Positions 5,292 to 56,349 of a stretch of 64,000 nucleotides of DNA are shown here, piece after piece (position 1 is the stretch's first letter; every line of letters starts with the position of its first letter). Source of the DNA: an uncultured Acidobacteriota bacterium (GTDB lineage Bacteria; Acidobacteriota; Vicinamibacteria; Vicinamibacterales; SCN-69-37); assembly GCA_963780895.1 (NCBI GenBank), contig CAWAEG010000001.1, forward strand, positions 522,179-586,178, read 5' to 3'. The notes below the pieces were generated by a model. The model did not search any database. It was given only the letters and a program-made list of their open reading frames with translations, and had not been told where the DNA came from. Made by a program: the position numbers and the translations under genes.

Positions 5292-7140
5292 ATGTGCGGC
5301 ATCGTCGGTTACGTCGGTCCCAAACCAGTGCTGCCCGTGTTGATGGATGGGCTGCGTCGCCTCGCATATCGCGGGTACGACTCGGCGGGCATCGCGCTCG
5401 TCCGCGACGGCCAGCTGCAGATTCGGCGCAGCGCCGGCAAGCTCGCCAATCTCGAGGAGGTGCTCGAGCGTGATCCCATCCAGGGCGAATTCGGCATCGG
5501 ACACACGCGCTGGGCAACGCACGGCCGTCCCACGGAAGAGAATGCGCATCCGCACCGCGACTGCAAGAACCGCGTCGTCGTCGTGCACAACGGGATCATC
5601 GAGAACTACCTGGAGCTCAAGCGCGAGCTGAAGGCGGCCGGGCACACGTTCGTCACCGAGACCGACACGGAAGTCGTCGCCCACCTCGTCGAGAAGGAGA
5701 GCCGCGGCGACGGCCTGCCGGCCGCGGTGCGTCGCGCGCTCGCGCACATCAAAGGGCTGTTCGCCCTCGTCCTGATTTCGGCGGACGATCCCGGAACGAT
5801 CGTCGCCGTCCGCAACGGCCCGCCGGTCGTCGTCGGCCTCGGCGACGGCGAGTTCTTCGTGGCCTCCGATATTCCCGCGATCCTCGCACACACACGCAAG
5901 ATCGTGTTCCTCGACGATCGGGAGATCGCGGTCGTCAAGCGCGACGGCGTCGTATTCACCGATTTCAACGACCGGAAGATCGACAAGGCCCCGCAGCACA
6001 TCAGCTGGGATCCCGTCATGGCGGAGAAGGCGGGTTATCCGCACTTCATGCTCAAAGAGATCCACGAGCAGCCGTGGGCCGTGCGCGAGACCGGTACTCG
6101 GCCGCACGTCGGTCGAGTCAGGGAGGGTGTTTCTCGAAGAAATGCAGATCGATCCGGATACGTTCCGGGCCATCGATCGCGTCGTCATCCTGGCCTGCGG
6201 CACCTCGTGGCACGCGGGTCTGGTGGGGAAGTTCCTGATCGAGGAGCTGGCCAGGATTCCGGTGGAGGTCGATTACAGCTCGGAGTTCCGGTACCGCGAG
6301 CCGATCGTGAACGACCGCACGCTCGCCATCGTCATCACCCAGTCGGGCGAAACGGCGGATACGCTCGGCGCGCTGCGCGAAGCCAAATCGCGCGGCGCCC
6401 GCAGCATCGCGATCTGCAACGTCGTCGGCAGCATGGCGACGCGTGAGGCGGACGGCACCGTCTACACACACGCCGGGCCGGAAATCGGCGTGGCGTCCAC
6501 GAAGGCGTTCACCTCCCAGCTCGTCGCGCTGCACCTGCTCGCGATCGCGATCGGCCAGGCGCGCGGCGCGCTCTCGCCCGACGCCGCGCGACCGCTGCTG
6601 CACGAGCTCGATCAGCTGCCGCTGCGGATTGAGGAAGCGCTGAAGTTGAACGACCGCATCAAGGAACTGGCGGCCTCGCTGCGCCATCACCGCGACTTCC
6701 TCTACCTGGGCCGCGGAATCAACTATCCGATTGCGCTCGAAGGCGCGCTGAAACTGAAAGAGATTTCGTACATCCACGCCGAAGGCTATCCGGCGGGCGA
6801 GATGAAGCACGGCCCGATCGCGCTCATCGACGACGACCTGCCGGTGGTCGCGCTCGCGGCCGACGACGTGGTGTTCGAGAAGGCCATCAGCAACATCCAG
6901 GAAGCCAAGTCACGCGGCGGACACGTGATCGTCGTCACCAACGCCGGCAAGCGGCGGGCGTTCGACGAGATCCTGGACCCGGCGAAAGACGTCATCCTCG
7001 AGGTGCCGGACGCGCACCCGCTGATGCTGCCGGTGCTGATGGTGATTCCGCTGCAGCTCCTCGCGTATCACGTGGCGGTCAAGCGGGGATGCGACGTCGA
7101 TCAGCCGAGGAATCTGGCGAAGAGCGTGACGGTGGAATGA
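5292..7140 (+). CDS. glmS: Glutamine--fructose-6-phosphate aminotransferase, reading frame broken by a 1-nt indel
   Basis: ORF 5292..6446 starts MCGIVGYVG...[11 protein letters not shown]...[16 protein letters not shown] 6127..7140 supplies ([12 protein letters not shown])FLEEMQ...[11 protein letters not shown]...QSGETADT...KSVTVE. An extra base at about 6093 (ACC G GTA) separates the two frames. Confidence 0.9.
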
Positions 7141-11540: not shown

Positions 11541-11983
11541 TCAGGCCCAAGGGGAAAGGCCCAAGGCCCAAGTTCGGAAAGATCGAGGCATTTGACGGGA
11601 TCCAGCTACAGCGGAGAGACCCGACGTTGCAGATTCAGCAGAGGTTCAATTGGCGAAGTACGAAAGTTTTCGAGAGCTGTTCGCCTGGCAAAAGGGGATG
11701 GACCTTGCGGAGAAGATCCATCACGCGACGCGATCCTTCGCAACTGGAGCTCTGCAAGCGCCTCTTGCTGATCAACCGGGACTCAGTCCGCGAGCTTCAG
11801 CGCCTTGCCGAAGAAGTCGGTCGCCTTCTCTTCGGTTTGTGGAGGTCTCTTTTCGCAGAGGCCGTCTGTTATTCTTTGGTATTGCTCGCAGTGTTTTCGA
11901 GCATGCCGTGGGCCCTGTTCCAAATCTTACGTCTCTGAGGGTGATTTCTTGCTTGGGCCTTGGGCCTTTCCCCTAGGGCCTGA
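11541..11983. other. 443-bp intergenic element bounded by 32-nt inverted repeats, carrying a decayed four-helix-bundle gene
   Basis: TCAGGCCCAAGGGGAAAGGCCCAAGGCCCAAG (11541-11572) versus CTTGGGCCTTGGGCCTTTCCCCTAGGGCCTGA (11952-11983) are 31/32 complementary. The element sits between divergent leuC and uvrD. Confidence 0.7.
11650..11860 (+). pseudogene. Remnant of a four-helix-bundle (23S rRNA intervening-sequence protein family) gene, internally deleted and frameshifted
   Basis: The N-terminus MAKYESFRELFAWQKGMDLAEKIHHATRSF matches the family start (F..L.VWQKA..L...IY..T..FP). The family C-terminus QLELCKRLLLINRDSVRELQRLAEEVGRLLFGLWRSL is present in a different frame. The middle ~50 residues of the family are missing. 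Confidence 0.7.
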
Positions 11984-11994
11984 ACACCGTCTCC

Positions 11995-14279
11995 ATGGAC
12001 CTTCTGTCGTCTCTGAACCCCGCTCAGCAGGAAGCCGTCCTCCACACCGAGGGGCCTCTGCTGATCCTCGCCGGCGCCGGCTCCGGGAAGACGCGCGTCA
12101 TCACCACCCGCATGGCGCATCTCATTGCCAGCGGTCTGGCCCAGCCGGGACAAGTACTCGCGGTGACGTTCACGAACAAGGCCGCCGAGGAGATGCGCGG
12201 CCGGGTCCAGCAGTTGCTCGGCGAGGATTGCCGGCAGATCTGGCTCTCGACGTTTCATTCGCTCTGCGCGCGGCTGCTGAGGCGGGAGGCGCCGGCGATC
12301 GGCCTCGAGCGCGACTTCGTCATCTACGACGCGTCCGATCAGCTGTCGGTCGTCCGGCAGGCGATGAAAGAGCTCGGGATCGACGACAAGCTGATCCCCC
12401 CCGCGCGGCGCTGGCGCGCATCAGCCAGGCCAAGAACCGCATGGAAACGGCCGGCGAGATGCGCGCGGTCAGCTCGAATTACCGGGACGAACAGATCGGC
12501 AAGATCTCTGAGCGCTACGTCAAGACGCTCGACAACGCCGGCGCGCTCGATTTCGACGACCTGCTGCTGAAGACCGTCGAGCTGGTGGAAACCAGCCAGA
12601 AAACGCGCGAGTTCTACGCGCACAAGTTCAAGTACATCCTCGTCGACGAATACCAGGACACCAACCGGCCGCAATACCTGTTGATCCGCCGCTTCGCCGA
12701 AGTACACCGGAACCTGTGCGTCGTGGGGGATCCGGATCAGTCCATTTACCGCTGGCGTGGCGCCGACCTCCGCAACATCCTCGACTTCGAGCGCGACTTT
12801 CCCGACGTCCACGTCGTGAAGCTCGAGCAGAACTACCGCTCCACGCAGGTGATTCTCGACGCGGCCTCGGCCGTGATCAGCCGCAACCGCAACCGGAAAG
12901 ACAAACAGCTGTGGACCGACCAGGCCGGCGGCGAACGAATCCTGTACGTCCGCGCGCCGGACGAGATCGAAGAGGCCGATTTCATCACGCGAACGATCCG
13001 GGAGTCGCACGCGGCGAAATCCGAGACGACCACGGCGGTGCTGTATCGCACGAACGCGCAGTCGCGCGCGATTGAAGACGCGCTGATGCGCGAGGGCGTG
13101 CCGTACCGCATCATCGGCGGCGTCCGGTTCTACGAGCGCAAGGAGATCAAGGACGCGCTCGCCTTCATGCGGCTGCTCATCAACCCGCACGACGACGTGA
13201 GTTTCAGACGGGTCGCCAACGTGCCCGCGCGCGGGATCGGGCGCGCGGTCTTCGAGTCGGTCGAACGGGTCGAGATCGAGCATCCTGACGCGGACACGCC
13301 GTTGCTCGCCGATCCGGGGGCCGCGGCCGGCCGCACGCCGCGATCGCTGTGGACGCGGCTCGAGGAGACGCTCCGTCAGCGTCCGCTCCAGCCGCGTGCG
13401 CTCGCGGCGCTGAAGTCATTCCACGATTTGATCACCGGCCTTCAGGCCGAGGTTCCCAAATCGAGCGTGTCGATCGTGCTGGGCCTCATTCTCGATCGAA
13501 CCGGATACCTTCGCGAGCTGCGGGAGTCGAAGAGCGAAGAGGCCGAAGCGCGGCTCGAAAACCTGATGGAGCTCGTCTCGGCCGCGCAGGAGTACGAAAT
13601 GCGCGACGACGAGCCGTCACTGGGCGGCTTCGTCGACCGCCTGTCGCTGCTCTCCGAGGCCGAGGAAGCCGACGGCGCATCGGCGGAAGCCGCCCGCGTC
13701 TGGCTGATGAGCATGCACGCCGCCAAGGGCCTCGAGTTCCCGACGGTCATCGTGGCGGGCATGGAGGAGGGCCTCTTCCCCCATTCGCGGTCGGCTGACG
13801 ACGAAGAGGAGATGGAGGAGGAGCGGCGGGTCTGCTACGTGAGTCTCACGCGTGCGCGGCAGCGTCTGATCCTCACCAGCGCCGCCCGCCGGCGCGTCTT
13901 CGGCGAATATCAGCAGACGCAGCCGTCCCGCTTCCTGAGCGAGATTCCGGACGAGCTCATCCAGCGCGTCGAGCCGGCGGCCCAGCACGCCCGCTGGCAC
14001 GCGACGCCGTACGAGCTCCGCAACCCGTACGGACGCAAGCCGGGCTACGACGGCACGCGCGCACGTGACACCGATGGCCGACCGTTTTCCTACGAGAACG
14101 AAGATCAATCAACGCCGGCGGCCGTCCGCACCGGTATGAAGGTTCGCCACCGCCAGTTCGGCGTCGGAACCGTCGTCGCGGTGGAAGAGCAGGGCGACGA
14201 CTTCAAAGTAACCGTCAGATTCGCGGCAGTCGGGACGAAAAAGCTCATGGCACGCTATGCGGGATTAGAGAGGGCCTGA
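11995..14279 (+). CDS. uvrD: ATP-dependent DNA helicase UvrD/PcrA, reading frame broken in a C7 homopolymer
   Basis: ORF 11995..12570 gives MDLLSSLNPAQQEAVLHTEGPLLILAGAGSGKTRVIT...KELGIDDKLIPP. The frame of ORF 11805..14279 continues RAALARISQAKNRMET...ILVDEYQDTNRPQY...VGDPDQSIYRWRGA...QNYRST...VSLTRARQRL. The switch lies in the C run at 12396-12402. Confidence 0.9.
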
Positions 14280-14315: not shown

Positions 14316-19609
<5,294 letters not shown>

Positions 19610-21067: not shown

Positions 21068-22411
21068 TCACCGAACCGACTCGACGAAGGTGTTGATAAG
21101 GCTGTTGAAGGCTGCGTCGCGCTGCCGGAGCTCCTCGACTTTTCGAATCGAGTGGATGACGGTCGAGTGATGTTTGCCGCCGAAGCTCTTGCCGATTTCC
21201 GGCAGCGACGCGCTCGTGAGCGACTTGCAGAGATACATCGCCACCTGGCGCGGCATCGCGATGGATTTCGAGTTGTTGCGTGACTTGAGATCGTTGATCT
21301 TGAGTTTGTAGTAGTCGGCCACGAACTTCTGAATGGCGTCGATCGTGACCGCCCGTTGATCGTGCCGAAGCACGTCGCGGAGCGTTTCCTGCGCCAGGGC
21401 CATCGAGATTTCCCTGCCCGTGAGCGAGGCGTACGCGAGAAGCCGGATGAGCGAACCTTCCAGCTCGCGGACGTTCGACTTGATCCGGCCCGCGATGAAG
21501 AGCGCCACATCGTCGGGCAGCGGCACGCCTTCGGCCTCGGCTTTTCGCTTCAAAATCGCGATTTTCGTCTCGAGATCGGGTGACTGGATATCGGCAATCA
21601 GGCCCCATTCGAAGCGGCTCCGCAGGCGTTCCTCGAGCTCGGTGATCTGATGCGGCGGCTGATCGCTGCTGATGACGATCTGTTTCTGCGCGTCGTGCAG
21701 CGCGTTGAACGTGTGGAAGAACTCGGTCTGCGTCCGTTCCTTGCCGACGATGAACTGGATATCGTCGACGAGGAGCACATCCACGCCCCGATACCGTTCC
21801 CGGAATTCCAGGATGCGGTCGTACCGAATCGCGTTGATGACTTCGTTCATGAAGCGTTCGGCCGAGATGTAGGTCAGCTTCAACCCGGGACTGTGCGTGA
21901 GCACGTAGTGGCCGATCGCGTGCATGAGATGCGTCTTGCCAAGACCCACGCCGCCGTAGAGGAAGAGCGGATTGTAGGAGCGTGACGGCGCCTCGGCGAC
22001 CGCGCGGCAGGCCGCGTGCGCGAATTGATTGGACGCCCCGACGATGAACGCGTCGAAGGAGTAGCGCGGGCTGAGGCCGACCACCTCGCTCGGCGAGGCC
22101 GCTTCCGGCGGCTTTTCTGGCGAAGGCTCCGCGGCTGATGGAGACGATTCTTCCGGCGTGTCGGGCTCCGCGCCGTCGGGGACGAACTTGAGCGCCGCGC
22201 CTTGACGGCCGACTTCGGCGAGCGCCTCGCCGATCACGCCGGCGTAGTGTTTCGTGAGCCAATCGACGACCATCGGATCGGCGACGCGGATCGTGATCGT
22301 GTTGCCGTTGTCGCCAAGGAGGGAGGTCTGCCTGAACCAGCTGTAGTAGCTGAACCGGTTGACCTTGGTCTCGATCCGTGCGAGGACGCTGTCCCAGATC
22401 GTGCCGGTCAT
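21068..22411 (-). CDS. dnaA: Chromosomal replication initiator protein DnaA
   Basis: ORF 21068..22543. The likely start is Met45 at 22411 (MTGTIWDSVLARIETKV...). Walker A is LFLYGGVGLGKTHL. The C-terminus is ...KSFGGKHHSTVIHSIRKVEEL (DnaA signature). Confidence 0.95.
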   Translation of the reverse strand: MTGTIWDSVLARIETKVNRFSYYSWFRQTSLLGDNGNTITIRVADPMVVDWLTKHYAGVIGEALAEVGRQGAALKFVPDGAEPDTPEESSPSAAEPSPEKPPEAASPSEVVGLSPRYSFDAFIVGASNQFAHAACRAVAEAPSRSYNPLFLYGGVGLGKTHLMHAIGHYVLTHSPGLKLTYISAERFMNEVINAIRYDRILEFRERYRGVDVLLVDDIQFIVGKERTQTEFFHTFNALHDAQKQIVISSDQPPHQITELEERLRSRFEWGLIADIQSPDLETKIAILKRKAEAEGVPLPDDVALFIAGRIKSNVRELEGSLIRLLAYASLTGREISMALAQETLRDVLRHDQRAVTIDAIQKFVADYYKLKINDLKSRNNSKSIAMPRQVAMYLCKSLTSASLPEIGKSFGGKHHSTVIHSIRKVEELRQRDAAFNSLINTFVESVR

Positions 22412-22800
22412 CCTGAAAACCCCGCCCGATTCAGCCCACCGAAGCCCCGGTACCGGCCCGAGCCGCGCATGCTCGCGACCCCTCAAAATACCCCAAAAAC
22501 CAGCCAGTACTCCCCGGAACCACAGGCAGACGGCGCAGCGCAAGTCTCCTGAATACGGAGGGTTAGACGTATCCGGTGCAAAAACCTTCGGATTTCCACA
22601 GCTTTTTCCACAGTTGTGGAAAACTTTCCGGGAGGCCGCCCCCTGGCTGGCGGGGGCCGGAATCTACCATAGCGGTTGGTCGCAGACAACGACTAAGACC
22701 TTTGAGGGCGTTTTGTGACGGCTCGTCAAACGACCGTAGAGGTCTTTAGTGCTACGATCCAGGTTTCTTCAGGTCGTATTGAGCCTCTTCAGGGAGTCCA
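22412..22800. other. Candidate oriC (dnaA-rpmH intergenic region at the coding-strand switch)
   Basis: dnaA, dnaN, gyrB and gyrA immediately to the left are on the minus strand. rpmH through the atp operon to the right are on the plus strand. The region contains a cluster of three DnaA-box-like 9-mers. Confidence 0.6.
22592..22623. promoter_or_regulatory. Cluster of three DnaA-box-like 9-mers
   Basis: ATTTCCACA (22592-22600), TTTTCCACA (22604-22612) and inverted TGTGGAAAA (22615-22623). These are 7-8 of 9 matches to TTATCCACA. Confidence 0.65.
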
Positions 22801-23699: not shown

Positions 23700-25424
23700 A
23701 TGGAAAAGCGCGTCTTCCTCGCGATTTTTCTCTGTTTCATCGTCGTCTGGGTGTGGCAGGCGTATTTCGTTCCGAAGCCGCCGCCCCCGGCGCTGACACC
23801 GGCTGCGCCAGGCAGCCCGGTGACGCCCGGCGCTCCGCCGACCGAGAACCCCGCGGCCGCCGCCGTGCCTCCGCCTGCTGCTGTCCCTGAAACACCGGGC
23901 GCCGCGCCGCTCGTGGCCGACGCAGCCGCGCGCGACATTCTGATCGAGACTGATTCGGTTCGCGCCGTCTTCTCGACGGCCGGCGCGGTCCTGAAGAGCT
24001 GGAAGCTCAAGAATTACCAGGACGACAATCGCCAACCGCTCGAGCTCGTGCCCCAGGACGTGCCGCCCGGCACGGCGCGGCCCTTCACGCTCGTGACCGA
24101 CGACGCGGGGCTGACGCAAACGCTGTCGCGCGCGCTCTTCAAACCGAGCAAAGAGGGGCTCTCGCTGGGTTCGGCGGCGGGCACGCTGAGCTTTCAGTAT
24201 CAGGATATGTCCGGTCTGAACGCGCGCAAGACGTTCTATTTCCAGCCCGACGGCCACGCGTACGTCGTCAACGTCGAAGCCGCGATTGACGTCGGCGGCG
24301 CGCCGAAGGCGGTCGAGATCGACTGGGGTCCCGCGCTGGGCCTCGGGTACAGCCCGGATGGATCGCAGTCGGTGCCGGTGCGCGCGATCCAGTTTCGCAA
24401 CGACGACGTCGAGCGGTTCACGGCCGACGAGGTCCGGGAGCAGGGCCGTTACGACGGTCCGCTTCGGTACGCCGGCGTGGACGAACACTACTTTCTGAGC
24501 GCCGCGCTGCCGGGTACGCAGACGGTCACGGTCCAGTACACGCCGTTGACGCTGCCAGTGGCCGGGAACACCGAAGGGCTCGTCCGCACGCTCATCGGTT
24601 ACCGCGTCCGCGTCCAATCTCCGACCCAGGGCGCCGCCACGCTGCCGTATTTCATGGGTCCGAAGGACTTCGACCTCCTGAAGGCGGTCGACGTCCAGCT
24701 CTCGCGCGCGATCGACTTCGGCATGTTTGCCTGGCTCGTCGTGCCGCTGCTGCAGTCGTTGAAATGGATCAACGGCTACCTCGGCAATTTCGGGTGGTCG
24801 ATCATCATCCTCACGTTGCTCATCAACTTCGCGATGTTCCCGCTGCGGCACAAGAGCATGGTCTCGATGCGCAAGATGCAGGCGCTGCAGCCGGAGGTCA
24901 AGTCGATCCAGGACCGCTACGCGAAGTACAAGCTGACCGACCCCGAGCGCCAGAAGATGAACCAGGAGATGATGGCGCTCTACAAGCAGAAGGGCGTGAA
25001 CCCGGCGAGCGGCTGCGTGCCGATGCTGCTCACCATGCCGGTGCTCTTCGCCTTCTACCAGATGCTCGCGGCGGCGATCGAGCTTCGCGGTGCGCCGTTC
25101 GTCGGATGGATCACCGACCTCGCCAAGATGGATCCCTGGTTCATCACGCCAATCATCATGGGCGGGACGATGTTCTGGCAGCAGAGGATGATGCCGACGT
25201 CGGCCGATCCCGTGCAGGCGAAGATGTTCATGTTCATGCCGCTGATCTTCACGGTGATGTTCCTGTGGGCGCCGAGCGGCCTGGTCCTCTACTGGCTGGT
25301 GAGCAACGTCATGACGATCGGCCAGCAGTACCTCACGAACCGCATCATCGGCGCGCCGGTGCGTCCGCCCCAACCGCCTCGCGCCGTGCCTGCCACCGCC
25401 GACAAGATCAGGAAGCGATCATGA
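23700..25424 (+). CDS. yidC: Membrane protein insertase YidC
   Basis: 574 aa with an N-terminal TM segment, a periplasmic domain and the conserved C-terminal core (...GWSIIILTLLINFAMFPLRHKSMVSMRKMQALQPEVKSIQDRY...GCVPMLLTMPVLFAFY). Confidence 0.93.
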   Translation: MEKRVFLAIFLCFIVVWVWQAYFVPKPPPPALTPAAPGSPVTPGAPPTENPAAAAVPPPAAVPETPGAAPLVADAAARDILIETDSVRAVFSTAGAVLKSWKLKNYQDDNRQPLELVPQDVPPGTARPFTLVTDDAGLTQTLSRALFKPSKEGLSLGSAAGTLSFQYQDMSGLNARKTFYFQPDGHAYVVNVEAAIDVGGAPKAVEIDWGPALGLGYSPDGSQSVPVRAIQFRNDDVERFTADEVREQGRYDGPLRYAGVDEHYFLSAALPGTQTVTVQYTPLTLPVAGNTEGLVRTLIGYRVRVQSPTQGAATLPYFMGPKDFDLLKAVDVQLSRAIDFGMFAWLVVPLLQSLKWINGYLGNFGWSIIILTLLINFAMFPLRHKSMVSMRKMQALQPEVKSIQDRYAKYKLTDPERQKMNQEMMALYKQKGVNPASGCVPMLLTMPVLFAFYQMLAAAIELRGAPFVGWITDLAKMDPWFITPIIMGGTMFWQQRMMPTSADPVQAKMFMFMPLIFTVMFLWAPSGLVLYWLVSNVMTIGQQYLTNRIIGAPVRPPQPPRAVPATADKIRKRS

Positions 25425-25879
25425 CCTCAGAACTCGACGCCAAAGTGATCGACTTTGTCCGCCAGGTGACCGGAGCCATGGGGCTCGACCTGGAGGTCGC
25501 GATCGAGGAGACGCCGGACAACATCCGTCTGAACCTGACGGGCGAAGGTGCCGAGGCGTTGGTGCAGCGGAGGGGCGAAACACTCGACGCGCTGCAGGTC
25601 ATCGTCAACACCGCCTTCCGGCGCGACGCCCGCGGCGACCGCCACTACGTCGTGGACGCGATGGGATTCCGCAAGGACAAGGACGCCGAACTGCGCCAGA
25701 TGGCGCAGTTGCTGATGGACAAGGTGAGGGCATCGGGCGCGCCCCAGGAAATCGGCCCGCTCAATCCCTACGCCCGCCGAATCGTCCACCTCACCGTCGC
25801 CGAAGACACGACCCTGTCTTCGGAAAGCATCGGAGACGCATTTCTCAAGTCGGTCGTCATTTCCAAAAAGATCGACTGA
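25421..25879 (+). CDS. jag: Jag/KhpB-type RNA-binding protein (KH + R3H)
   Basis: The ATG at 25421 overlaps the yidC stop (ATGA). MTSELDAKVIDFVRQVTGAMGLDLEV...PLNPYARRIVHLTVAED (R3H). Confidence 0.82.
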   Translation: MTSELDAKVIDFVRQVTGAMGLDLEVAIEETPDNIRLNLTGEGAEALVQRRGETLDALQVIVNTAFRRDARGDRHYVVDAMGFRKDKDAELRQMAQLLMDKVRASGAPQEIGPLNPYARRIVHLTVAEDTTLSSESIGDAFLKSVVISKKID

Positions 25880-35063: not shown

Positions 35064-35684
35064 GTGACTCGACTGTTCCCGACCTTGCCGCGACACAGCC
35101 GCGCCCGCGCGGCGTGGCGCGTTGGCGTACCGGTCTTCCTGACGATCCTCGTCATGTTCATGACGGGGCCGGACGTCGTGCTCGCCGCCTCGGATGCCGA
35201 AGAGGGGCATTCGAGCTGGATGCCCACGATCGCGAAGATATTCAACTTCGCCGTCCTTGCGGGCATTCTCGTGTATTTCCTGCGTGCGCCGATTGCCGGT
35301 TACCTGCGGAGCCGAAGCGAGACCATCCGGAAAGACCTGGTCGAGGCGGCCTCGCTCCGGTCGTCGGCCGAGGCGCAACTCACCACCATGCGGACCCAGC
35401 TGGCGCAGCTGCCCGCCGAGCTCGAGGCCCTCAAGCGCCGCGGCCAGGAAGAGCTCGCGGCCGAGGGCGTGCGTATGAAAGAGGCGACCGCGCGGGCGCG
35501 CGATCGGCTGCTGGAGCGGACGCGGCGCGATATCGATCTGCAGTTCCGGCTCGCGCGGCGCGCGCTGCTCGAGCACACGGCCGAGCTCTCGATCTCGCTC
35601 GCGCGCAGGCGCGTCGAACAGACGATCACCAGCGACGATCACCGCCGGCTGATCGACCAGTACGCGGCCGAGGTGCACGCATGA
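35064..35684 (+). CDS. atpF: F0F1 ATP synthase subunit b
   Basis: TM segment (IFNFAVLAGILVYFL) followed by a coiled helix, directly before atpH. The start may lie downstream of 35064. Confidence 0.75.
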   Translation: MTRLFPTLPRHSRARAAWRVGVPVFLTILVMFMTGPDVVLAASDAEEGHSSWMPTIAKIFNFAVLAGILVYFLRAPIAGYLRSRSETIRKDLVEAASLRSSAEAQLTTMRTQLAQLPAELEALKRRGQEELAAEGVRMKEATARARDRLLERTRRDIDLQFRLARRALLEHTAELSISLARRRVEQTITSDDHRRLIDQYAAEVHA

Positions 35685-36229
35685 CCTCGCGGGCCATCGC
35701 GCGGCGGTACGCGGCCGCGCTCTTCGACGTGGTCCGCAAGGACGCCGACGTCGATCGCGCCCTGCGCGAGCTCGAGGCGATCAAGGCGGCGATCACCGGT
35801 CATGAACAGTTGCGCAAGGTGCTCGAGTCGCCGGGCGTGCCGATGGCGACGAAGCGCACGATTCTCGAGGCGATCGTCCGGAGCCTGGGCGACGTGTCAC
35901 CGCAGATCGTCCGGCTGATTGGCCTCCTCGGGGAGCGCGATCGGCTCGCGATGGTTGTGGACATCGCCGATGCCTTTGCCGAACGCGTCATGCATTCGAA
36001 AAAGATCGTCCCGGCGGAAGTCGTGACGGCCGTTCCGCTCGCCGACGACAGCCGGGCGGCGCTGGCGGCGGCGCTCGGACGCGCGGCCGGCGCGCACGTG
36101 ACGATGACCGAGCGCGTGGATCCCTCGATCATCGGCGGCGTCGTCGCCAAAGTCGGCAGCGTCGTGTTCGACGGCAGCGTGACGACGCAGCTCGCGCGGA
36201 TGCGGCAGAAGCTCGTTGCGCAGAGTTAA
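35681..36229 (+). CDS. atpH: F0F1 ATP synthase subunit delta (OSCP)
   Basis: The ATG at 35681 overlaps the atpF stop (ATGA). MTSRAIARRYAAALFDVVRK...IIGGVVAKVGSVVFDGSVTTQLARMRQKL. Confidence 0.88.
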   Translation: MTSRAIARRYAAALFDVVRKDADVDRALRELEAIKAAITGHEQLRKVLESPGVPMATKRTILEAIVRSLGDVSPQIVRLIGLLGERDRLAMVVDIADAFAERVMHSKKIVPAEVVTAVPLADDSRAALAAALGRAAGAHVTMTERVDPSIIGGVVAKVGSVVFDGSVTTQLARMRQKLVAQS

Positions 36230-36326
36230 GGAAAGACCGCCCGAGGAGAGCGAGGCTTGGCGAGCGCCGCAGGGCGGGCGAGCGGGGGTGGGGCCCCGCG
36301 AGCAAGTAATAAAGAAGGGCTAGTGC

Positions 36327-37850
<1,524 letters not shown>

Positions 37851-37857
37851 CGCGCCG

Positions 37858-37888
37858 GAACTTCAACCGTCGAACTTCGAAGTTCACA
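37858..37888. repeat. GAACTTCGAA-family repeat (contains the 14-nt palindrome GAACTTCGAAGTTC)
   Basis: GGAACTTCAACCGTCGAACTTCGAAGTTCAC lies between atpA and atpG. Confidence 0.7.
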
Positions 37889-37909
37889 AAGGGCTTTTCA
37901 GGAGCGATC

Positions 37910-38782
37910 GTGCCATCACTTATCGACATGCGCCGGCGCATCCGCGCTGTGAAGTCCACGCAGCAGATCACGAAGGCCATGAAGATGGTGGCCGCGTCGA
38001 AGCTGCGCCGCGCGCAGGAGCGCGTCATCGCGACGCGTCCGTTCGCGCGTGAGGCCCGGCGGGTGCTGGCGAGCATCGCGTCCCGCGTCGATCAGTCGGC
38101 CCATCCGTTGCTCGATCGGCGGCGCGGCGCGGCCACGGGCTCGACGCTGCTCATCGTCATCACCGCCGATCGCGGCCTCTGCGGGAGCTTCAACACGAAC
38201 ATCATCAAGGCCGTCGCGGCGTTCCTCCGCGAGAATTCCGGCCGTCCGGTCTCGTTCGGGCTGGTCGGGCGCAAGGGGCGCGACACGCTCGGGCGCCGCG
38301 GCCTGCCCGTGAAGTTCGAATACGTGAATCTGCCGAAGGTGATTCACTTCGCCGAGGCTGAGGCCGTCGCCCAGCCCGCGGTGGCGGAATTCGTCGAGGG
38401 CCGGGTGGACAGCGTCCACCTGATCTACAACGAGTTCAAGTCGGTGATGCAGCAGAAGGTCGTGGTGGAGCAGCTGCTCCCGCTCGCGCCGATCACCGAG
38501 GAAGAGCAAGCGGCCGCGCGCTCGACGACCGAATACTTGTACGAGCCGTCGGCACAGCGGATTTTCGAGGTGCTGCTCGGCCGTCTCGTCGAGGCGCAGG
38601 TCCTGCGCGCGCTGCTCGAATCGAACGCGGCATTCTACGCGGCGCAGATGACGGCGATGGACGCCGCGACGCGGAATTCGGCGGAGATGATCGAAGGCCT
38701 GACGCTGACGATGAACAAAGTCAGGCAGGCGGCGATTACGCGGGAGATTATTGAAGTGGTTTCAGGGGCACAAGCGTTATAG
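37910..38782 (+). CDS. atpG: F0F1 ATP synthase subunit gamma
   Basis: IRAVKSTQQITKAMKMVAASKLRRAQ...ITADRGLCGSFNTNI...NKVRQAAITREIIEVVSGAQAL. Confidence 0.94.
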   Translation: MPSLIDMRRRIRAVKSTQQITKAMKMVAASKLRRAQERVIATRPFAREARRVLASIASRVDQSAHPLLDRRRGAATGSTLLIVITADRGLCGSFNTNIIKAVAAFLRENSGRPVSFGLVGRKGRDTLGRRGLPVKFEYVNLPKVIHFAEAEAVAQPAVAEFVEGRVDSVHLIYNEFKSVMQQKVVVEQLLPLAPITEEEQAAARSTTEYLYEPSAQRIFEVLLGRLVEAQVLRALLESNAAFYAAQMTAMDAATRNSAEMIEGLTLTMNKVRQAAITREIIEVVSGAQAL

Positions 38783-38903
38783 GGCAAGTGAGATTCATGC
38801 GTGAGGCGGGTCTGTCCCCGCTCGCGTAAGCGGGACGGACCCGTTGGCTGGTTCGATGCTTGATGTTGATTTGAGTCAAGCACCTGGTGAAGCTGATTGC
38901 TGA

Positions 38904-40358
<1,455 letters not shown>

Positions 40359-40361
40359 GCC

Positions 40362-40787
40362 GTGGCCACACCACCCAGACACCTCACGCTCCAGTTCGTG
40401 ACGCCGGAGCGGGCCATCGTCCACGAGGATGTGGACGAGGTCGTGTTGCCGGGCGAGGAGGGGGCCATCGGCGTGCTGCCCGGTCACGCGGCGCTGCTCG
40501 CGGCGCTCAAGACCGGCGAGATGTGGTATCGCAAGGGTCCCGAGAAGAAGTTTGCGTTCGTCGCGGGGGGCTTCGCGGAGATCGTGCCCGACCGCGTCTC
40601 GATCCTCGCCCAGGTGGCCGAGCGCGCCGAAGACATCGACCTCGCGCGCGCAGAAGCCGCCAAACGGCGCGCGGAGGAGCGGATCACGAAACCATCGTCC
40701 GAGATCGACATCGCACGCGCCCGCGTCGCGCTGCTGAGGGCCCTGACGCGCGTGCAGGTTTCCCGCCACACGCGCCCGCGCGGCTGA
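40362..40787 (+). CDS. atpC: F0F1 ATP synthase subunit epsilon
   Basis: LTLQFVTPERAIVHEDVDEVVLPGEEGAIGVLPGHAALLAAL..., in last position of the cluster. Confidence 0.88.
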   Translation: MATPPRHLTLQFVTPERAIVHEDVDEVVLPGEEGAIGVLPGHAALLAALKTGEMWYRKGPEKKFAFVAGGFAEIVPDRVSILAQVAERAEDIDLARAEAAKRRAEERITKPSSEIDIARARVALLRALTRVQVSRHTRPRG

Positions 40788-49080: not shown

Positions 49081-49149
49081 GCTGACCACCGCCGCCAAGG
49101 CTTCGGTGGTCCGCCGAAGCTTCAGCGAAGGCGGAAGCCCGCCCCTACG
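49081..49149 (+). repeat. ~69-nt REP-like element, copy 1
   Basis: GCTGACCACCGCCGCCAAGGCTTCGGTGGTCCGCCGAAGCTTCAGCGAAGGCGGAAGCCCGCCCCTACG. There is an internal hairpin GCTTCGG-N7-CCGAAGC. It is near-identical to the reverse complement of 62856-62925. Confidence 0.8.
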
Positions 49150-49156
49150 TACCCCC

Positions 49157-50216
49157 ATGAAAATCGGCTCACTGACACTCGACCATCCCGTCGCCCTCGC
49201 GCCGATGGCTGGCATGACCGACACGGCCTTTCGCCGGCTCGTCAAAGGGATGGGCGGCTGCGGGCTCGTCGTCACGGAGATGGTGAGCTCGGAGGGGCTG
49301 GTGCGGGGCATCGACCGCACGCTCGAATACGCGGAGTACACCGAGGCGGAACGGCCGGTCTCGATCCAGATCTTCGGCGGCGATCCGAAGGTGATGGCCG
49401 ACGCCGCGCAAATCGTCGAGGGCATGGGCGCCGATATCGTCGACATCAACATGGGTTGCCCGGTGCCGAAAATCGCCAAACACAACGCCGGCTGCAGTCT
49501 GATGCGGGAGCCGGCGCACGCGGCAGAGGTCGTGCGGGCGATGGCGAGCGCGGTCCGTATTCCGGTGACGGTGAAGATGCGCGCCGGCTGGAACGAGCAA
49601 GCCATCAACGCTCCGGACCTCGCGCGCATGGCCGAAGATGCCGGCGCGGCCGCCGTGGCAGTGCACGGCACGTACGGCGGCTCAGTCGTACACCGGCGAG
49701 TCGGACTGGGAGCTGATCGGCCGTGTCGCGAGAACCGTCGGGATTCCGGTGTTCGGATCGGGTGATTGCGTCGAGCCGGGACAAATCGTCAGCCGGCTTC
49801 GCGAGTCGGGCGCGAGCGGGGTGCTCGTCGGGCGCGGCGCGCTCCGGAATCCGTGGATCTTCAGCCAGGCCGCGGAAGCACTGGCCGGACGGGCGACACC
49901 GGACATCTCCGCCGTCGAGCGGGGCCAGTTCCTGCTCGACTACATGGACCTGCTGCTCCGTGAGCGAGTCGGCGAGGACGCCGGCTTCCGGCACACCGCA
50001 CCAGGTCAGCAGCCCGGCGAGGCGGTGCCGACGGCCCGAGGGCGCGAGCGCTGGGTCATCAATAAGCTGCGCGCCCTGGGATCCTGGTACACAAAGGGAC
50101 TTGAAGGCGGGTCGCAGCTACGGGTCGCGATCAACTCGGCTCAGTCGATCCCCGAGCTTCGGTCGCTCATCGAATCATTCTTCTTCGAGCCAGCGCTAGG
50201 TCTTCAGACCAATTAG
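49157..50216 (+). CDS. dusB: tRNA-dihydrouridine synthase (DusB-like), reading frame broken by a 1-nt indel
   Basis: MKIGSLTLDHPVALAPMAGMTDTAFRRLV...VDINMGCPVPKI...AAVAVHG | RTAAQSYTGESDWELIGRV...PVFGSGD... An extra base at 49670 separates ORF 49106..49765 from ORF 49638..50216. Confidence 0.88.
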
Positions 50217-50558
50217 CGGTGCCAGCGGCTCGGTCTTGGCATCGACCATCTCGCTCTCGAGGATCACGGCCGACTCGCTCAAGGCCCAGAACAAGCGACC
50301 CAGTTCCCGATGTAACGGGTGCGTCAGGTAGTTGATGAGGCTCTGCTTGTCCTCGAATTCCAGAATGCAGACGTTCAGATAGGTCTTTTCACCAAATGGG
50401 CGGGAGTAACCGGCATCAATTTCTACCCGTCGTCCTACCGAGGCGCGCCTGACGCCCGCGACTTCACGCGAAAGACGCTCCAAGAGTTGGGCACATGACA
50501 GAAGCAGCTCGCTGCTGGCGTCCTGCTTCGGATTGAAAAGAACGATGTGCGCGATCAT
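50196..50558 (-). CDS. Dabb (stress-responsive alpha/beta barrel) domain protein
   Basis: MIAHIVLFNPKQDAS...SVGRRVEIDAGYSRPFGEKTYLNVCILEFEDKQSLINYLTHPLHRELG. Confidence 0.7.
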   Translation of the reverse strand: MIAHIVLFNPKQDASSELLLSCAQLLERLSREVAGVRRASVGRRVEIDAGYSRPFGEKTYLNVCILEFEDKQSLINYLTHPLHRELGRLFWALSESAVILESEMVDAKTEPLAPLIGLKT

Positions 50559-51536
50559 CGATCGCGTTTGGGTCCACGAGGTCCTCGGGGCCCGCGAGAT
50601 TCACCGGGGCCGCCGAATCCTCCGCGCCGGCCGAATCCAGATCCCCCGGGCTTGAAAGGCCGACCCGACCCCTGTGGCTTCCCGCTTCCCCAACCTCCAG
50701 GCTTTCCCCCGCCAGAGCTCCCGGTGCCTCGAGCGCCCCAGCCACCTGACTTGCCAGCTCCAGATCCGCCGGGTTTTCGAGCGCCCCAGCCACCTGACTT
50801 GCCAGCTCCAGGTCCGCCGGGTTTTCGAGCGCCCCAGCCACCTGACTTGCCAGCTCCAGGTCCGCCGGGTTTTCGAGCGCCCCAGCCACCTGACTTGCCA
50901 GCTCCAGGTCCGCCGGGTTTTCGAGCGCCCCAACCACCTGACTTGCCAGCTCCAGGTCCGCCTGGTTTTCGAGCGTCCCAACCGCCGGACTTGCCGGCTC
51001 CCGGGCTGCCCGGCTTGCGAGCGCCCCAACCACCGGACTTGCCGGCTCCAGGGCCGACCTGGTTTTCGAGCGTCCCAACCGCCGGACTTGCCGGCTCCCG
51101 GGCTGCCCGGTTTGCGAGCGCCCCAACCCCTTGGCTTTCCAGCGTGCTCACTTCCGGGTTTCCGCGATCCCTGGCTTCCTGGTTCTCCGGTCCCCCAGCC
51201 GCCCGGCGTCTCCGGCTTGCCCCAGCTCCGTTTCTTGAATCTGGCTCTTTTCTGATCCCGCGTCAGCTTGAACCGCTCGCGCGGATCGACGTGGTCGCCG
51301 CCGGGCCGCCAGGTCGGCGGCCGGTCCGGCCGCATCCGGCGCTGGGCCTTGAGCGCGTCGCGAGCGGCGATCGGCGACTCCCACAATTGACCGCGGTCGA
51401 ACCAGCGAAGCACGACCGCCGGCTGTGTTCGCTGAAGTTGTGTCAGGGTCGGCACCAGGTCTTCACGATGTTTCGCGCGAAAAGACGTTGGCGTCGCGCC
51501 GTCCACGATCACCCAGAACGCGTGAGGCGCGGGCAT
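50555..51536 (-). CDS. Hypothetical protein: conserved-looking N-terminal domain + ~8-10 x 16-aa tandem repeats + RGG-rich tail; frame broken inside one repeat unit
   Basis: ORF 50601..51536 gives MPAPHAFWVIVDGATPTSFRAKHREDLVPTLTQLQRTQPAVVLRWFDRGQLWESP...RFKLTRDQKRARFKK. ORF 50555..51151 gives (GPGAGKSGGWGARKPG)n ...GRPFKPGGSGFGRRGGFGGPGESRGPRGPRGPKRDR. The two frames meet in the 49-nt repeat unit at 51018-51066. Confidence 0.7.
50730..51114. repeat. 48-bp tandem repeat array (8 units) inside the coding region
   Basis: The unit CGAGCGCCCCAGCCACCTGACTTGCCAGCTCCAGGTCCGCCGGGTTTT starts at 50730, 50778, 50826, 50874, 50922, 50970, 51018 and 51067. Units 2-4 are identical. Unit 7 is 49 nt. Degenerate copies flank both ends. 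Confidence 0.9.
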
Positions 51537-51543
51537 CAGGAAC

Positions 51544-52935
<1,392 letters not shown>

Positions 52936-53078
52936 TTGTGTGGTGCCGGTATTTTGACACGACCTCGGGTCTCTTTTTCACGAGACTGGGGAAAAGAAAC
53001 CGGATTCGTTTTCTCGGTGCCCCGCATTACCCATCCTCCCCTAACGGTTTTTTCCGCCGACTCCGATAGTCTGAATCG

Positions 53079-53303
53079 ATGATGCCTGAACGAAAGACCG
53101 TGTCGATTCCGCGAGCCTGCGAGCTCGTCGGGGTGAGCCGCCGGACCATCTATAACTGGCTGGCGGGCGGGAAAGTCGAATACGTGCGAACGGCCGGCGG
53201 ATCGGTCCGGATTTTTGCCGACACGCTCTGGCGCGAGCCCGGCGGAACACAGCAGGCGCCACCCAGCGTCGAGTGGAATGATCGGCTTCGCCGCGGTGCC
53301 TGA
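53079..53303 (+). CDS. Excisionase/MerR-like helix-turn-helix DNA-binding protein (74 aa)
   Basis: SIPRACELVGVSRRTIYNWLAGGKVEYVRTAGGSVRIF. Confidence 0.7.
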   Translation: MMPERKTVSIPRACELVGVSRRTIYNWLAGGKVEYVRTAGGSVRIFADTLWREPGGTQQAPPSVEWNDRLRRGA

Positions 53304-53574
53304 GACGCCGACACCGACGAAACCGTCGAGACCTGTGGATTCCGCGCCCGAGTCGGATCTCTTCCGACTGTTCCATCGACTGAACAATCAGCTCGGCGTC
53401 ATTCTCGCCAACGCTGAGTTGCTGGAAAGCCGCCTCACCGACGAGACCCAACGAGCCAGAGCCAGTCAGATCGTCGCGGGGGCGGTCGATGCGATCGCGA
53501 CCGTGCAGAGTCTGAGGCGGGTCGTCGCGCCGGAAAACGAGCGGGACCCAGGGTTGAGTCCGTCGGCGGGATGA
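53278..53574 (+). CDS. Small protein consisting only of a histidine-kinase DHp-like (H-box) helix pair
   Basis: Internal Met of ORF 53215..53574: MIGFAAVPETPTPTKPSRPVDSAPESDLFRLFHRLNNQLGVILANAELLESRL...AVDAIATVQSLRRVV. The H-box resembles the HDxxNxLxxIxGxxELL type. There is no ATPase domain. It overlaps the HTH ORF by 26 nt in another frame, so a frameshifted fusion cannot be excluded. Confidence 0.55.
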   Translation: MIGFAAVPETPTPTKPSRPVDSAPESDLFRLFHRLNNQLGVILANAELLESRLTDETQRARASQIVAGAVDAIATVQSLRRVVAPENERDPGLSPSAG

Positions 53575-53737
53575 CAGTTTTGGTAGTCCTGTCAAAGGCG
53601 TGACGAGCCAAAGAGGCGTTCGCACACGATTTCACAGCACTTCACATTCACGCACTTTCTCCTAACTACAACTAAATAAGCAAGTTAGCGAAAAGTTGCG
53701 ATCCAGGCCTGGATTCGCTTTTTATTTGCTTTGGGCG

Positions 53738-53752
53738 TGGCATCGCTGTTGC
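53738..53752 (+). promoter_or_regulatory. Sigma-54 (-24/-12) promoter candidate
   Basis: TGGCAT-CGCTG-TTGC matches TGGCAC-N5-TTGC(A/T). It lies ~45 nt upstream of the ATG at 53797. A 12-bp palindrome TCCAGGCCTGGA (53702-53713) and TTCAC repeats (53631-53655) lie upstream in an AT-richer spacer. Confidence 0.6.
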
Positions 53753-53796
53753 CCCTGCGATCGGCCCTGACCGTTCGACCTTTAGGGAGGATTTCG

Positions 53797-54603
53797 ATGC
53801 AACGGGCGCCTTTGGCGGGACATCAGCAGGATCGAGTCGCAGCGAGCTTGCCCTTCGTGGAGTCGCTGGCTCGTCGCATGGCATCGACCATGCCGCACTC
53901 GATCGATCTGGGCGATCTTGTCCAGGACGGCGTCCTCGGCCTCATCGACGCGGCACATCGCTTCGACGAGAGCCGCGGCATCAAGTTCGAGACGTTCGCC
54001 GAACGTCGCGTTCGCGGAGCGATGATCGACGCGCTTCGTCGTGATGCGTGGCCGCGCGGCGTTCGTCGCGTTCGGCGCGAGCTCGAAGCTGCGCGCGAAG
54101 AGCTCCGACGTGAGCTTGGCGCGGAGCCGACGCTCGCGGATCTCGCGCGCCGCGTGGGCGCCGACGAGGCACGGCTGGAGCGCACGATCGTGCGCATCAG
54201 CACCATCGAGTCCACGTCCCCGCTCGCCAATTTCGAAACGCTCGACAGCGCGACGCTGCCCGCAGTCCTTGTGCCGAGCGAGCCGCCGTCGCCGGATCGT
54301 TTGTTCGAGCAGGCTGAAGTCCGCGATCGGGTCCGCACGGCGCTCGCGCAGCTCCCGTCGCGCGAACGGAAGATTCTCGGTCTCTATTACTTCGGCGACG
54401 CCACGATGAAGCAGATCGGCAAGCAGATTGGCGTCAACGAATCCCGCGTCTCCCAGCTCCACGCGCGCGCGATCCAGCGCCTCCGGAAGATCCTCACGGG
54501 CGCCGGCGACGCGCCGGCCCTGAAGCTCGTCCAGAAACCGCGCCGAGCGAAGATGACAGCCGCGCCGGTGAAGACGAAGAGACGGCTGCACCGAGTCGCG
54601 TAA
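53797..54603 (+). CDS. FliA/WhiG (sigma-28) family RNA polymerase sigma factor
   Basis: Internal Met preceded by GGAGG. ...DLGDLVQDGVLGLIDAAHRFDESRGIKFETFAERRVRGAMIDALR (region 2). ...LPSRERKILGLYYFGDATMKQIGKQIGVNESRVSQLHARAIQRLR (region 4). Confidence 0.85.
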   Translation: MQRAPLAGHQQDRVAASLPFVESLARRMASTMPHSIDLGDLVQDGVLGLIDAAHRFDESRGIKFETFAERRVRGAMIDALRRDAWPRGVRRVRRELEAAREELRRELGAEPTLADLARRVGADEARLERTIVRISTIESTSPLANFETLDSATLPAVLVPSEPPSPDRLFEQAEVRDRVRTALAQLPSRERKILGLYYFGDATMKQIGKQIGVNESRVSQLHARAIQRLRKILTGAGDAPALKLVQKPRRAKMTAAPVKTKRRLHRVA

Positions 54604-54745: not shown

Positions 54746-56349
54746 TTATCCGAGTGTCTCTCTCGCGATCCGGACGAGATCCCGCAACCTGAACGGCTTC
54801 GGTACCCACCTGCACCCGCTCTCCTCGAGAAACCGCTCGGCTTCGGTACCGGCGACGTCTCCCGTTACGAACACCAGCCGCCGCGCCACCTGAGGCATCG
54901 TGGCCGAGACTTCGCTGAAGAACATCATCCCGTCCACCTTCGGCATTTTCAGGTCGCAGATGATCACGTCGTAGTGCCGTTCACGCAGGCGCGCGAGCGC
55001 CTCTTCGCCGTTGGCGGCGCGATCCACCTTGAAGCCTTCGTCAGCCAGTGCCGCGGCGACCGCCTCGCCGAGCGCCAGCTCGTCTTCGACGACGAGCGCG
55101 CGGGTGCCCTTCGGCACCTCCTTGAGCGGCTGGGTGGGTCCGGCTTCGAGCAGCCGGACGTTGTCGCCGCTCACCGGCAACTCGAGCAGGAACGACGCGC
55201 CGCGGCCCCCTTCCGACCGGACGGCGAGCCGTCCGCCATGTTCCTGGGCGATGGCATACGCCACGGTGAGTCCGAGGCCGGTGCCCTTCCCGATTGCCTT
55301 GGTAGTGAAAAACGGATCGAAGATTCGCTTCTGCACGTCGTCGGGTACGCCGGGCCCATCGTCGTTCACCTCGAGGATCACGGCGTCACGTTCGGGCTCC
55401 TGCCAGGTGCGAAGGATGAGCGTGCCGCGGCCGTGTGCGTCGAGCATCGCCTGCTCGGCGTTGACGATGAGGTTCAGCAGGATCTGCTGGATCTGATGCG
55501 GATCGGCAAAGACGGGGGGAAGCCCCGCGGCCAGCGCCTCGAGGATCACGACGTGCGCGACGCGCTGCTCGTACGCCCTCAGCGCCAGCGTTTCGCGGAC
55601 CACTTGATTCAGGTCCACCGTCGTCCGGGTCGTGTGACGCTTCCGGGCGAACGTCTGCAGATTGCGCACGATCCGGGCGGCGCGCTCGGCGGCGTTGTGG
55701 ATGGCGTCGAGATCCCGGCGCGTCAGCTCGTCGAGCCGGCGGCCCGCCAGCCGCTCGGCGCAGGCAAGGATCGTCGCGAGCGGATTGTTCAGCTCGTGTG
55801 CCACACCCGACATCGTCTGGCCCAGAGCGGCCAGTTTCTCGGCTTGTGAAAGCTGGTGATAGAGGTCGCGCGACTGGTCCTGGAGCTTCCTGCGCTCCGT
55901 GACGTCGCGCATGATCGCCTCGACGTGCAGTCCGGACGGTACCGGCTTGGGCGGCGGAGGCGCTTTGCGGGTCTTCGAGGTCTTCGGCGGCGAGCCGTCT
56001 TGCGTGGGGCCGGCGCGGTGATCGGTTCAGCGCGTGCGGTGACTTCGGTCCAGATCGCCGACCCGTCGGCCCGCCGCAGCCGCAGGACGTAACCGCGGAC
56101 CTGGCCGTCGCGCGCGAGATCCTGCAGGAACTCCGTCCTGGCTTGTTCGTCCACGAACCGGTCGGAGTCCAGGGGCCGGATGTCGCCGACGGGCACGTCG
56201 GCGGCCCAGCCGAAGATCAGCCGGAGCTGGGGGTTCGCGGCGAGCGTGGTGGTGCCGTCCGGTGCGATCCGGCCGACGTACACACCTTCCTGCAGTGTTT
56301 CGAAGAGGTGGCCAAGACCTCGGGGGTCTTTTTGACGACTCAAAGACAC
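54746..56349 (-). CDS. PAS - HisKA - HATPase_c - REC hybrid sensor histidine kinase, reading frame broken between PAS and the kinase core
   Basis: ORF 55789..56349 gives a PAS-like N-terminus (...GVYVGRIAPDGTTTLAANPQLRLIFGW...GYVLRLRRADGSAIWTEVTARAEP). ORF 54746..55912 gives (SGLHVEAI)MRDVTERRKL...MSGVAHELNNPLATI...NDDGPGV...GTGLGLTVAY...ALVVEDE...IICDLKMPKVDG. The shift lies within 55935-56027. Confidence 0.85.

Follow-up and report, generated by a model that had tools for sequence, protein, structure and literature searches.

Several bacterial proteins join a small folded N-terminal domain to a long basic tail of tandem repeats, among them mycobacterial HupB/MDP1 and the Pseudomonas proteins AlgP and PhaF (KPAA/AAKP repeats). 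Repeat number in such tails varies between strains, and the tails are thought to bind DNA non-specifically. In Myxococcus, CarD carries a domain that interacts with RNA polymerase and a basic tail of the HMGA or H1 kind. Here we describe a gene on the minus strand of a 64,000-nucleotide (nt) stretch of contig CAWAEG010000001.1, from an uncultured bacterium of the Vicinamibacterales (Acidobacteriota); this whole stretch is called the window, and positions are counted from its first letter. The product has a folded head followed by a basic, low-complexity repeat tail, as do HupB/MDP1, AlgP and PhaF, and the tail is encoded by a 48-bp tandem array. With moderate confidence we read the array as coding for a low-complexity tail that expanded recently, in an uncharacterised Vicinamibacterales protein family, whose members would be polycationic, nucleic-acid-binding accessories of a sigma-54 phosphorelay module.

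The window protein also differs from the described systems. Unlike the heads of HupB/MDP1, AlgP and PhaF, its head shows no relation to HU or phasin and has no match in Pfam or PDB; the tail is rich in Gly, Pro, Arg, Lys and Trp, not in Lys, Ala and Pro, and holds no AKP units (PAKKA, KPAA), and the repeat unit is wholly different from one family lineage to another. As in CarD, a conserved N-terminal domain precedes a basic tail that varies between lineages, but Pfam detected no CarD_TRCF domain, the window protein has no AT-hooks, and its link to transcription comes solely from a putative operon shared with a sigma-54 activator. The tail also resembles the RGG/RG (GAR) sticker-spacer regions of eukaryotic FUS, LAF-1, DDX4 and nucleolin, with Gly-rich disorder, evenly spaced aromatic and basic residues, and a composition that is conserved when the sequence is not. 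By contrast, the window protein holds only a single RGG and a single cluster of three RG, Lys and Arg are equally frequent in its array, and Trp takes the place of Tyr or Phe. With 11 GW and 9 WG the tail resembles GW/WG 'Ago-hook' platforms in composition only; other family members use F or W beside K, R or P, and GW is not conserved. Finally, HPF/YhbH was once called 'sigma-54 modulation protein', a name that came from the position of its gene by the sigma-54 machinery. The window protein is likewise a small basic protein beside sigma-54 machinery, and such adjacency need not mean a sigma-54 role; unlike HPF/YhbH it gives no Ribosomal_S30AE match, and its gene follows the activator, not rpoN. 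In function, HupB/MDP1, AlgP, PhaF, CarD and the RGG/sticker-spacer regions are the nearest analogues, but the window protein belongs to none of the first four groups and probably not to the RGG/sticker-spacer group.

The array spans 50729-51143 within the minus-strand gene and comprises 8.6 copies with 90% matches (score 590 in Tandem Repeats Finder, TRF), a regularity far beyond chance. Units start at 50729, 50777, 50825, 50873, 50921, 50969, 51017, 51066 and 51114, in a register that is arbitrary and lies one base off that of an earlier note made from the sequence alone. Units 2-4 (50777, 50825 and 50873; span 50777-50920) are identical, unit 1 (50729) differs from them by one base, and periodicity is perfect over the 168 nt of 50765-50932; toward the N-terminal side, at the 5' end of the gene, two subtypes alternate, GWD…GS and GWG…GG. 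The unit at 51017-51065 has 49 nt: compared with its sister units it carries an extra A on the plus strand at 51057 (CCG[A]CC), a T in the mRNA sense, which shifts the frame. Apart from the one-base register, the earlier description of a 48-bp array with identical units 2-4 and one 49-nt unit is confirmed by TRF and by the listing of units.

The gene runs from an ATG at 51536 down to 50555. In frame 0, as assembled, an open reading frame (ORF) of 311 amino acids (aa) at 50601..51536 contains the N-terminal domain and 2.5 good repeats, followed by the out-of-frame repeats RQVRWLGRSKTRRTWSW. Frame +1 (50555..51151) holds the units proper, each 48-bp unit coding for GPGAGKSGGWGARKPG, and its tail ends in PRGPRGPRGPKRDR, also given as …GFGRRGGFGGPGESRGPRGPRGPKRDR, before a TGA stop that overlaps the ATG of the next gene, which encodes a Dabb protein (ATGA at 50555-50558, minus strand). 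When base 51057 is removed, the two frames join into a protein of 326 aa (pI 12, net charge +47) with the family's conserved end …PRGPKRDR directly before the stop and with the ATGA coupling to Dabb; the conserved N-terminal domain of about 105 aa then occupies 51222..51536 and the tail-coding region 50555..51221, both on the minus strand. The array is open in all six frames, with ORFs at 50547-51566 (plus strand) and 50464-51126 (minus strand), and an antisense ORF of 339 aa would read as a proline-rich repeat protein (PQPPDLPAPGPPGFRA). Since G+C at third codon positions (GC3) is low in the tail (0.52-0.54), a GC3 frame plot picks out the wrong strand across the array, a trap for gene callers; at 65% G+C the plot is also too noisy for finding frameshifts.

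The suggestion that the first ~110 aa form a folded domain was borne out by an AlphaFold2 (AF2) model built from a 65-sequence alignment, with a mean predicted local distance difference test (pLDDT) score of 83 over about 105 aa. The model shows a beta-beta-alpha-beta-beta-alpha core, then a WRPGG-H-DPR loop and two basic helices. The view that the array is coding, and lies in a gene for a folded N-terminal domain with a disordered basic tail, is supported. The domain consensus is FWVIVDG…PTSFRA…LVPTLTQLQRTQP…WF.RG.LW.SP…WRPGG.H.DPR.RF.LTRDQKRARFKKR. Residues W8, I10, F19, R20, L27, W76-R77-(P78)-G79-G80, H82 and D84 are invariant and all are present in the window sequence, which is itself the first row of the alignments (A1 and A2) that defined these columns; conserved basic surface residues are R20, R36, R48, R77, H82, R93, K96, R97 and K101. 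The earlier note had allowed that the domain might lack homologues, but a profile search found them in abundance: 3233 clusters at the 90% identity level, against 329 in a single-sequence search, and 690 clusters at 50% identity. The closest are 79-87% identical. A scan of one genome per species placed the family in at least 469 species genomes, of which nearly all carry a Vicinamibacterales or Acidobacteriota label, Luteitalea among them; the best match, locus L005, is 81% identical. The domain stands at the N-terminus in nearly all family members, whose lengths range from about 100 to more than 500 aa; the few apparent departures are gene-calling extensions, among them proteins P0171 and P0227, which start inside the preceding activator gene. 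All homologues are unnamed or "hypothetical" and without a Pfam domain. The N-terminal domain had no family match in Pfam, NCBIfam, PADLOC or PHROGs, a hidden Markov model (HMM) search of PDB sequences had no hit with E below 0.24, and Foldseek gave nothing significant in PDB (best E = 1.5) or in BFVD, where the best hit was an uncharacterised phage protein (E = 0.08). The literature searches made here found nothing on the family. A likeness to the N-terminal domain of IF3, which has the same order of secondary structure, was rejected (0.2% probability in an hhalign comparison of A2 with E. coli IF3; no IF3 chain among the Foldseek PDB hits), and an AbrB-like swapped hairpin is not supported, with no AbrB, MazE or SpoVT chain among the Foldseek hits. 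The fold of the family is apparently new.

With base 51057 removed the tail is 221 aa long, of which 39% is Gly and 13% Pro; it has a net charge of +35, lacks Ile, Leu, Val and Met, and contains 11 Trp, spaced exactly 16 aa apart for nine intervals in a row along the array. A collagen-like (GXY)n arrangement was rejected, Gly occupancy per phase being 0.35, 0.36 and 0.45. The earlier label "RGG-tailed" is too generous: the C-terminus is Arg/Gly-rich, but this end has only one RGG and six RG, three of them clustered at the extreme C-terminus (SRGPRGPRGPK), and the array, built of a GW/KPG-type unit, is without any RGG. The restored C-terminal motif is shared with the close homologues P0001, P0002, P0005, P0008 and P0010. 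Across the family the tails are hypervariable, common in composition but not in sequence, and rich in R, K, G and P plus W or F (medians: R+K 25%, D+E 10%, G+P 36%, aromatic 4%, aliphatic 1%), with basic C-terminal ends that often read …PRGPK…. Repeat units are lineage-specific, for example GGWKPKSP, DRPRGDRPFSNRPPG, GDFKPR, GPGSRGPG, FGDRKP, GDRPAWKPK and GDRPFRPKPE. At the DNA level, TRF detected tandem repeats in 50 of 85 family genes. Their periods range from 9 to 225 nt, and the most regular arrays are that of the window and that of locus L015 (45 bp x 8.2 copies). Two metagenome contigs, L087 (1049-2026) and L088 (612-1709), share 99.5% identity, and what sets them apart is one in-frame indel of 120 nt within the array; their upstream DNA agrees at 500 of 500 bases. 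Another pair, L090 (999-2348) and L091 (1089-2336), is 98% identical with in-frame indels of 6, 63 and 45 nt. These indels are either strain-level copy-number variation or assembly collapse. The idea of a recent expansion or ongoing copy-number change is thus supported at the family level, where genes carry different repeats and near-identical strains differ by in-frame indels; for the array of this species, neither an exact look-up of the product nor a metagenome scan (best 79%) gave a same-species contig for comparison. Repeat expansion is a habit of the whole family, and the present array is an ordinary case of it.

Immediately upstream of the family gene lies a gene for an NtrC-type sigma-54 activator (51544..52935, minus strand) with a receiver domain, an AAA+ domain with GAFTGA and a Fis-type helix-turn-helix (HTH) domain (Pfam Sigma54_activat 5.6e-71, Response_reg and HTH_8); its NCBIfam matches (AtoC, NtrC and others) all fall below equivalog cut-offs. 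Read from the sequence, 7 nt (51537..51543) separate its stop (51544-51546) from the ATG of the repeat gene. The third gene of the unit encodes the Dabb (stress-responsive alpha/beta-barrel) protein (50196..50558, minus strand; PF07876, 7.3e-12, 46 bits against a cut-off of 25). We compared the neighbourhood by searching the window's neighbouring proteins against 84 related genome loci; 14 metagenome loci were also compared. The activator directly precedes the family gene in all 84 genome loci, and it does so too in the 11 of the 14 metagenome loci that have upstream DNA, where part of its gene is kept. The order activator, family gene, Dabb is kept in 84 to 98 related loci, Dabb following in most. 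In about 63 of the 84 loci the family gene starts -4 to +8 nt from the activator stop, and the ATGA overlap with the Dabb start occurs in 52 of 63 despite very different tail lengths. Co-orientation and tight packing with the activator and Dabb, as the earlier note had them, are therefore features that the relatives conserve in order and spacing. Because short gaps and ATGA overlaps are conserved, the spacings suggest that the three genes may be translationally coupled. Gene order across the relatives places the family gene in a conserved regulatory module built around a putative sigma-54 phosphorelay.

Other parts of this module can be predicted from the surrounding DNA. Divergently upstream in related loci are a gene for a FliA/WhiG-family sigma factor and one for an excisionase/BldC-like HTH protein, and Dus, SurA and Mfd genes converge from the other side of the unit. 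In the window, the sigma-54-type promoter-like site TGGCATCGCTGTTGCC (53738..53753, plus strand) stands before the sigma gene (ORF 53731..54603), whose product scores 188.4 bits with TIGR02479 against a cut-off of 189.6. About 50 of the 84 loci have TGGCAY-N5-TTGC in the corresponding position, as the sole match per locus (e.g. L005 3846, minus strand). The site is the probable target of the activator, and the arrangement suggests a cascade from sigma-54 to an alternative sigma factor, driven by the adjacent activator. A hybrid histidine kinase gene adjoins the module (54746..55912, minus strand). The space from the excisionase/BldC-like HTH gene (53079..53303) to the sigma gene is occupied by a small conserved ORF at ~53330-53574 on the plus strand (within ORF 53215..53574); this ORF has an H-box-like stretch (FHRLNNQLGVILANAELLE) and no Pfam match, and may encode a stand-alone phosphotransfer protein linking the hybrid kinase to the activator. 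In many loci the conserved element GTGTCAAAATACCG stands 15-20 nt before the activator start (52935; in the window at ~52945-52965, minus sense), with TTGACC in some loci ~17-20 nt further upstream, and together these resemble a sigma-70-type promoter whose leader is very short. On a larger scale, dnaA, yidC, a jag/khpB-like gene, gyrB/gyrA and the ATP synthase operon (21068-22543, minus strand; 23700-25879 and 35064-40787, plus strand) place the window in the chromosomal origin region.

The frame break at 51057 admits more than one explanation. As assembled, the frame does not run through the tail, and it does so without interruption once the base is removed. That the 49-nt unit is a biological feature is very probably wrong, since four other conserved genes of the window also carry 1-nt indels: dus (49106-50216), glmS (5292-7140) and uvrD/pcrA (11805-14279), all on the plus strand, are each broken into two overlapping ORFs, dus by an extra A (GGCACGT) at ~49670 relative to L005, glmS by an extra G at ~6092 in ACCGGTAC, which puts its GATase and SIS halves out of frame with one another, and uvrD/pcrA by a shift at a run of seven C, ~12395; and in gyrB (14316-19598, minus strand) a shift near ~17240 leaves the C-terminal domain (around 17170) in a different frame. 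Among the genes checked the indel rate is ~1 per 13 kb, which points to an imperfect consensus, and as gyrB and glmS are generally essential, sequence error is the economical explanation of 51057 as well. Comparison of units and relatives thus makes a single-base sequencing or assembly error the most likely origin of the 49-nt unit. A seeming GyrB-GyrA fusion (1760-aa ORF) proved to be false, the single-base indel in gyrB causing out-of-frame read-through into gyrA, and other suspected split genes (DnaA, YidC/Jag, an ABC transporter, ATP synthase b/delta) are ordinary upstream-extended ORFs. Were the frameshift real, this strain would carry a pseudogene, or else an allele that is truncated or altered, with a 311-aa product whose tail, out of frame and still very basic, is uncoupled from Dabb. 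The sequence as assembled reads so, the out-of-frame product is open for ~150 codons and basic (net charge +63), and database homologues P0182, P0194, P0213 and L059 (6001-6690) also have out-of-frame tails, as where AAAIADGNPVDPQVKA is a shifted reading of GDRGWKPSRPAGQG. However, these homologues come from assemblies of metagenome-assembled genomes (MAGs) that are equally suspect, broken repeat tails being a recurrent artefact in public MAG proteins, and the frame downstream of 51057 shows no sign of decay, with perfect repeats, a conserved C-terminus and an unbroken ATGA overlap. We regard a real frameshift as quite unlikely. Programmed +1 ribosomal frameshifting within the array, joining the N-terminal domain to the GW/KPG tail, is scarcely credible. 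Both frames are open across the site and both halves are needed for a family-type protein, but a stop-free repeat in G+C-rich DNA is expected to give open frames anyway, the site (CGA AAA CCA GGT CGG CCC) has no slippery or stall motif, and the tail is read in a single frame in all 84 genome loci and in the complete metagenome homologues.

Copy number and function can be questioned in the same way. If the array had been collapsed or inflated in assembly, its identical units would say nothing of recent expansion; the 168-nt periodic stretch exceeds a 150-nt read and is near k+48 for common assembler k, and the consensus is imperfect elsewhere in the window. Diverged flanking units anchor the array, though, and comparably regular arrays occur in independent assemblies of relatives, such as that of L015, so that we consider such an artefact possible and on balance doubtful. 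The main rival to a nucleic-acid-binding role is that of a dedicated protein-protein modulator, an anti-activator or co-activator of the activator, sigma-54 or RNA polymerase, with the tail as a flexible spacer or degron. The strictly conserved place directly after the activator, at distances typical of translational coupling, suits partners made in fixed ratio, and strong conservation of the N-terminal domain contrasts with a freely varying tail. Yet a net charge of +35 to +47 and regularly spaced aromatics, kept across lineages with unrelated tails, are more than a passive spacer needs, and Pfam and NCBIfam gave no homology to anti-activators such as PspA or NifL, or to HPF; we judge a pure modulator unlikely. 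Several points weigh against the reading of an expanded tail on a nucleic-acid-binding accessory. Neither experiment nor homology ties the N-terminal domain to nucleic-acid binding, the Foldseek and HMM searches being empty. Synteny extends over the whole neighbourhood throughout the order (Mfd, SurA, Dus, sigma factor, kinase), and for this reason adjacency alone is no proof of joint function; the place beside the activator could come in part from slow genome rearrangement and not from functional coupling. The call of an error at 51057 and the copy number rest on the assembly, and the periodic stretch is near the resolution limit of a short-read de Bruijn assembler. The strain-level indels, taken from metagenome contigs, could be assembly collapses. 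Finally, GC3 is only 52% in the array, unusual for this genome, and 0.54 in the window tail; tails across the family follow this trend, with medians of 0.69 for tails and 0.82 for the N-terminal domain.

We nevertheless favour a polycationic accessory protein with a recently expanded tail. Its array would have grown by replication slippage or unequal recombination between 48-bp units, and changes in multiples of 48 bp would keep the frame, leaving the tail merely longer or shorter; with the 49-nt unit taken as an error, the real product would have ~326 aa. Its composition points to a multivalent binder of a polyanion, most likely DNA or RNA. The conserved domain would give specificity, for a nucleic-acid site or for a partner (the activator or RNA polymerase, for example), the tail would add non-specific multivalent avidity, and translational coupling would allow the protein to be made in fixed proportion with the activator. 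A bolder version, which we find improbable but worth stating, is that the family is a hitherto unrecognised transcription or nucleoid factor specific to the Vicinamibacterales, in which a new fold docks on the sigma-54 activator, the RNA polymerase complex or its upstream DNA and the fast-evolving repeat tail of aromatic and basic residues provides multivalent DNA or RNA binding, perhaps standing in for IHF-type architectural help or forming a local condensate at sigma-54 promoters. If so, repeat number would be an evolvable tuning knob. In all, the feature is real, non-random and correctly described in the earlier note, whose interpretation was partly right.

Single-base errors easily break repeat tails of this kind, so that gene callers report proteins that are truncated or out of frame. 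The family also offers a clean natural case of a disordered tail in bacteria that evolves by repeat turnover under selection for composition only, and may be useful for studying the evolution of disordered regions. Vicinamibacterales are widespread soil Acidobacteriota with almost no genetics. From its presence in at least 469 species genomes and its constant place between the sigma-54 activator and Dabb, the family appears to be a core and wholly unannotated part of a conserved module, predicted to comprise a hybrid kinase, a small putative phosphotransfer protein, the activator and a sigma-54-dependent FliA/WhiG-type sigma factor. It is this large, order-wide, unannotated family fixed in a sigma-54 module, and not the frame break, that is worth the attention of specialists.

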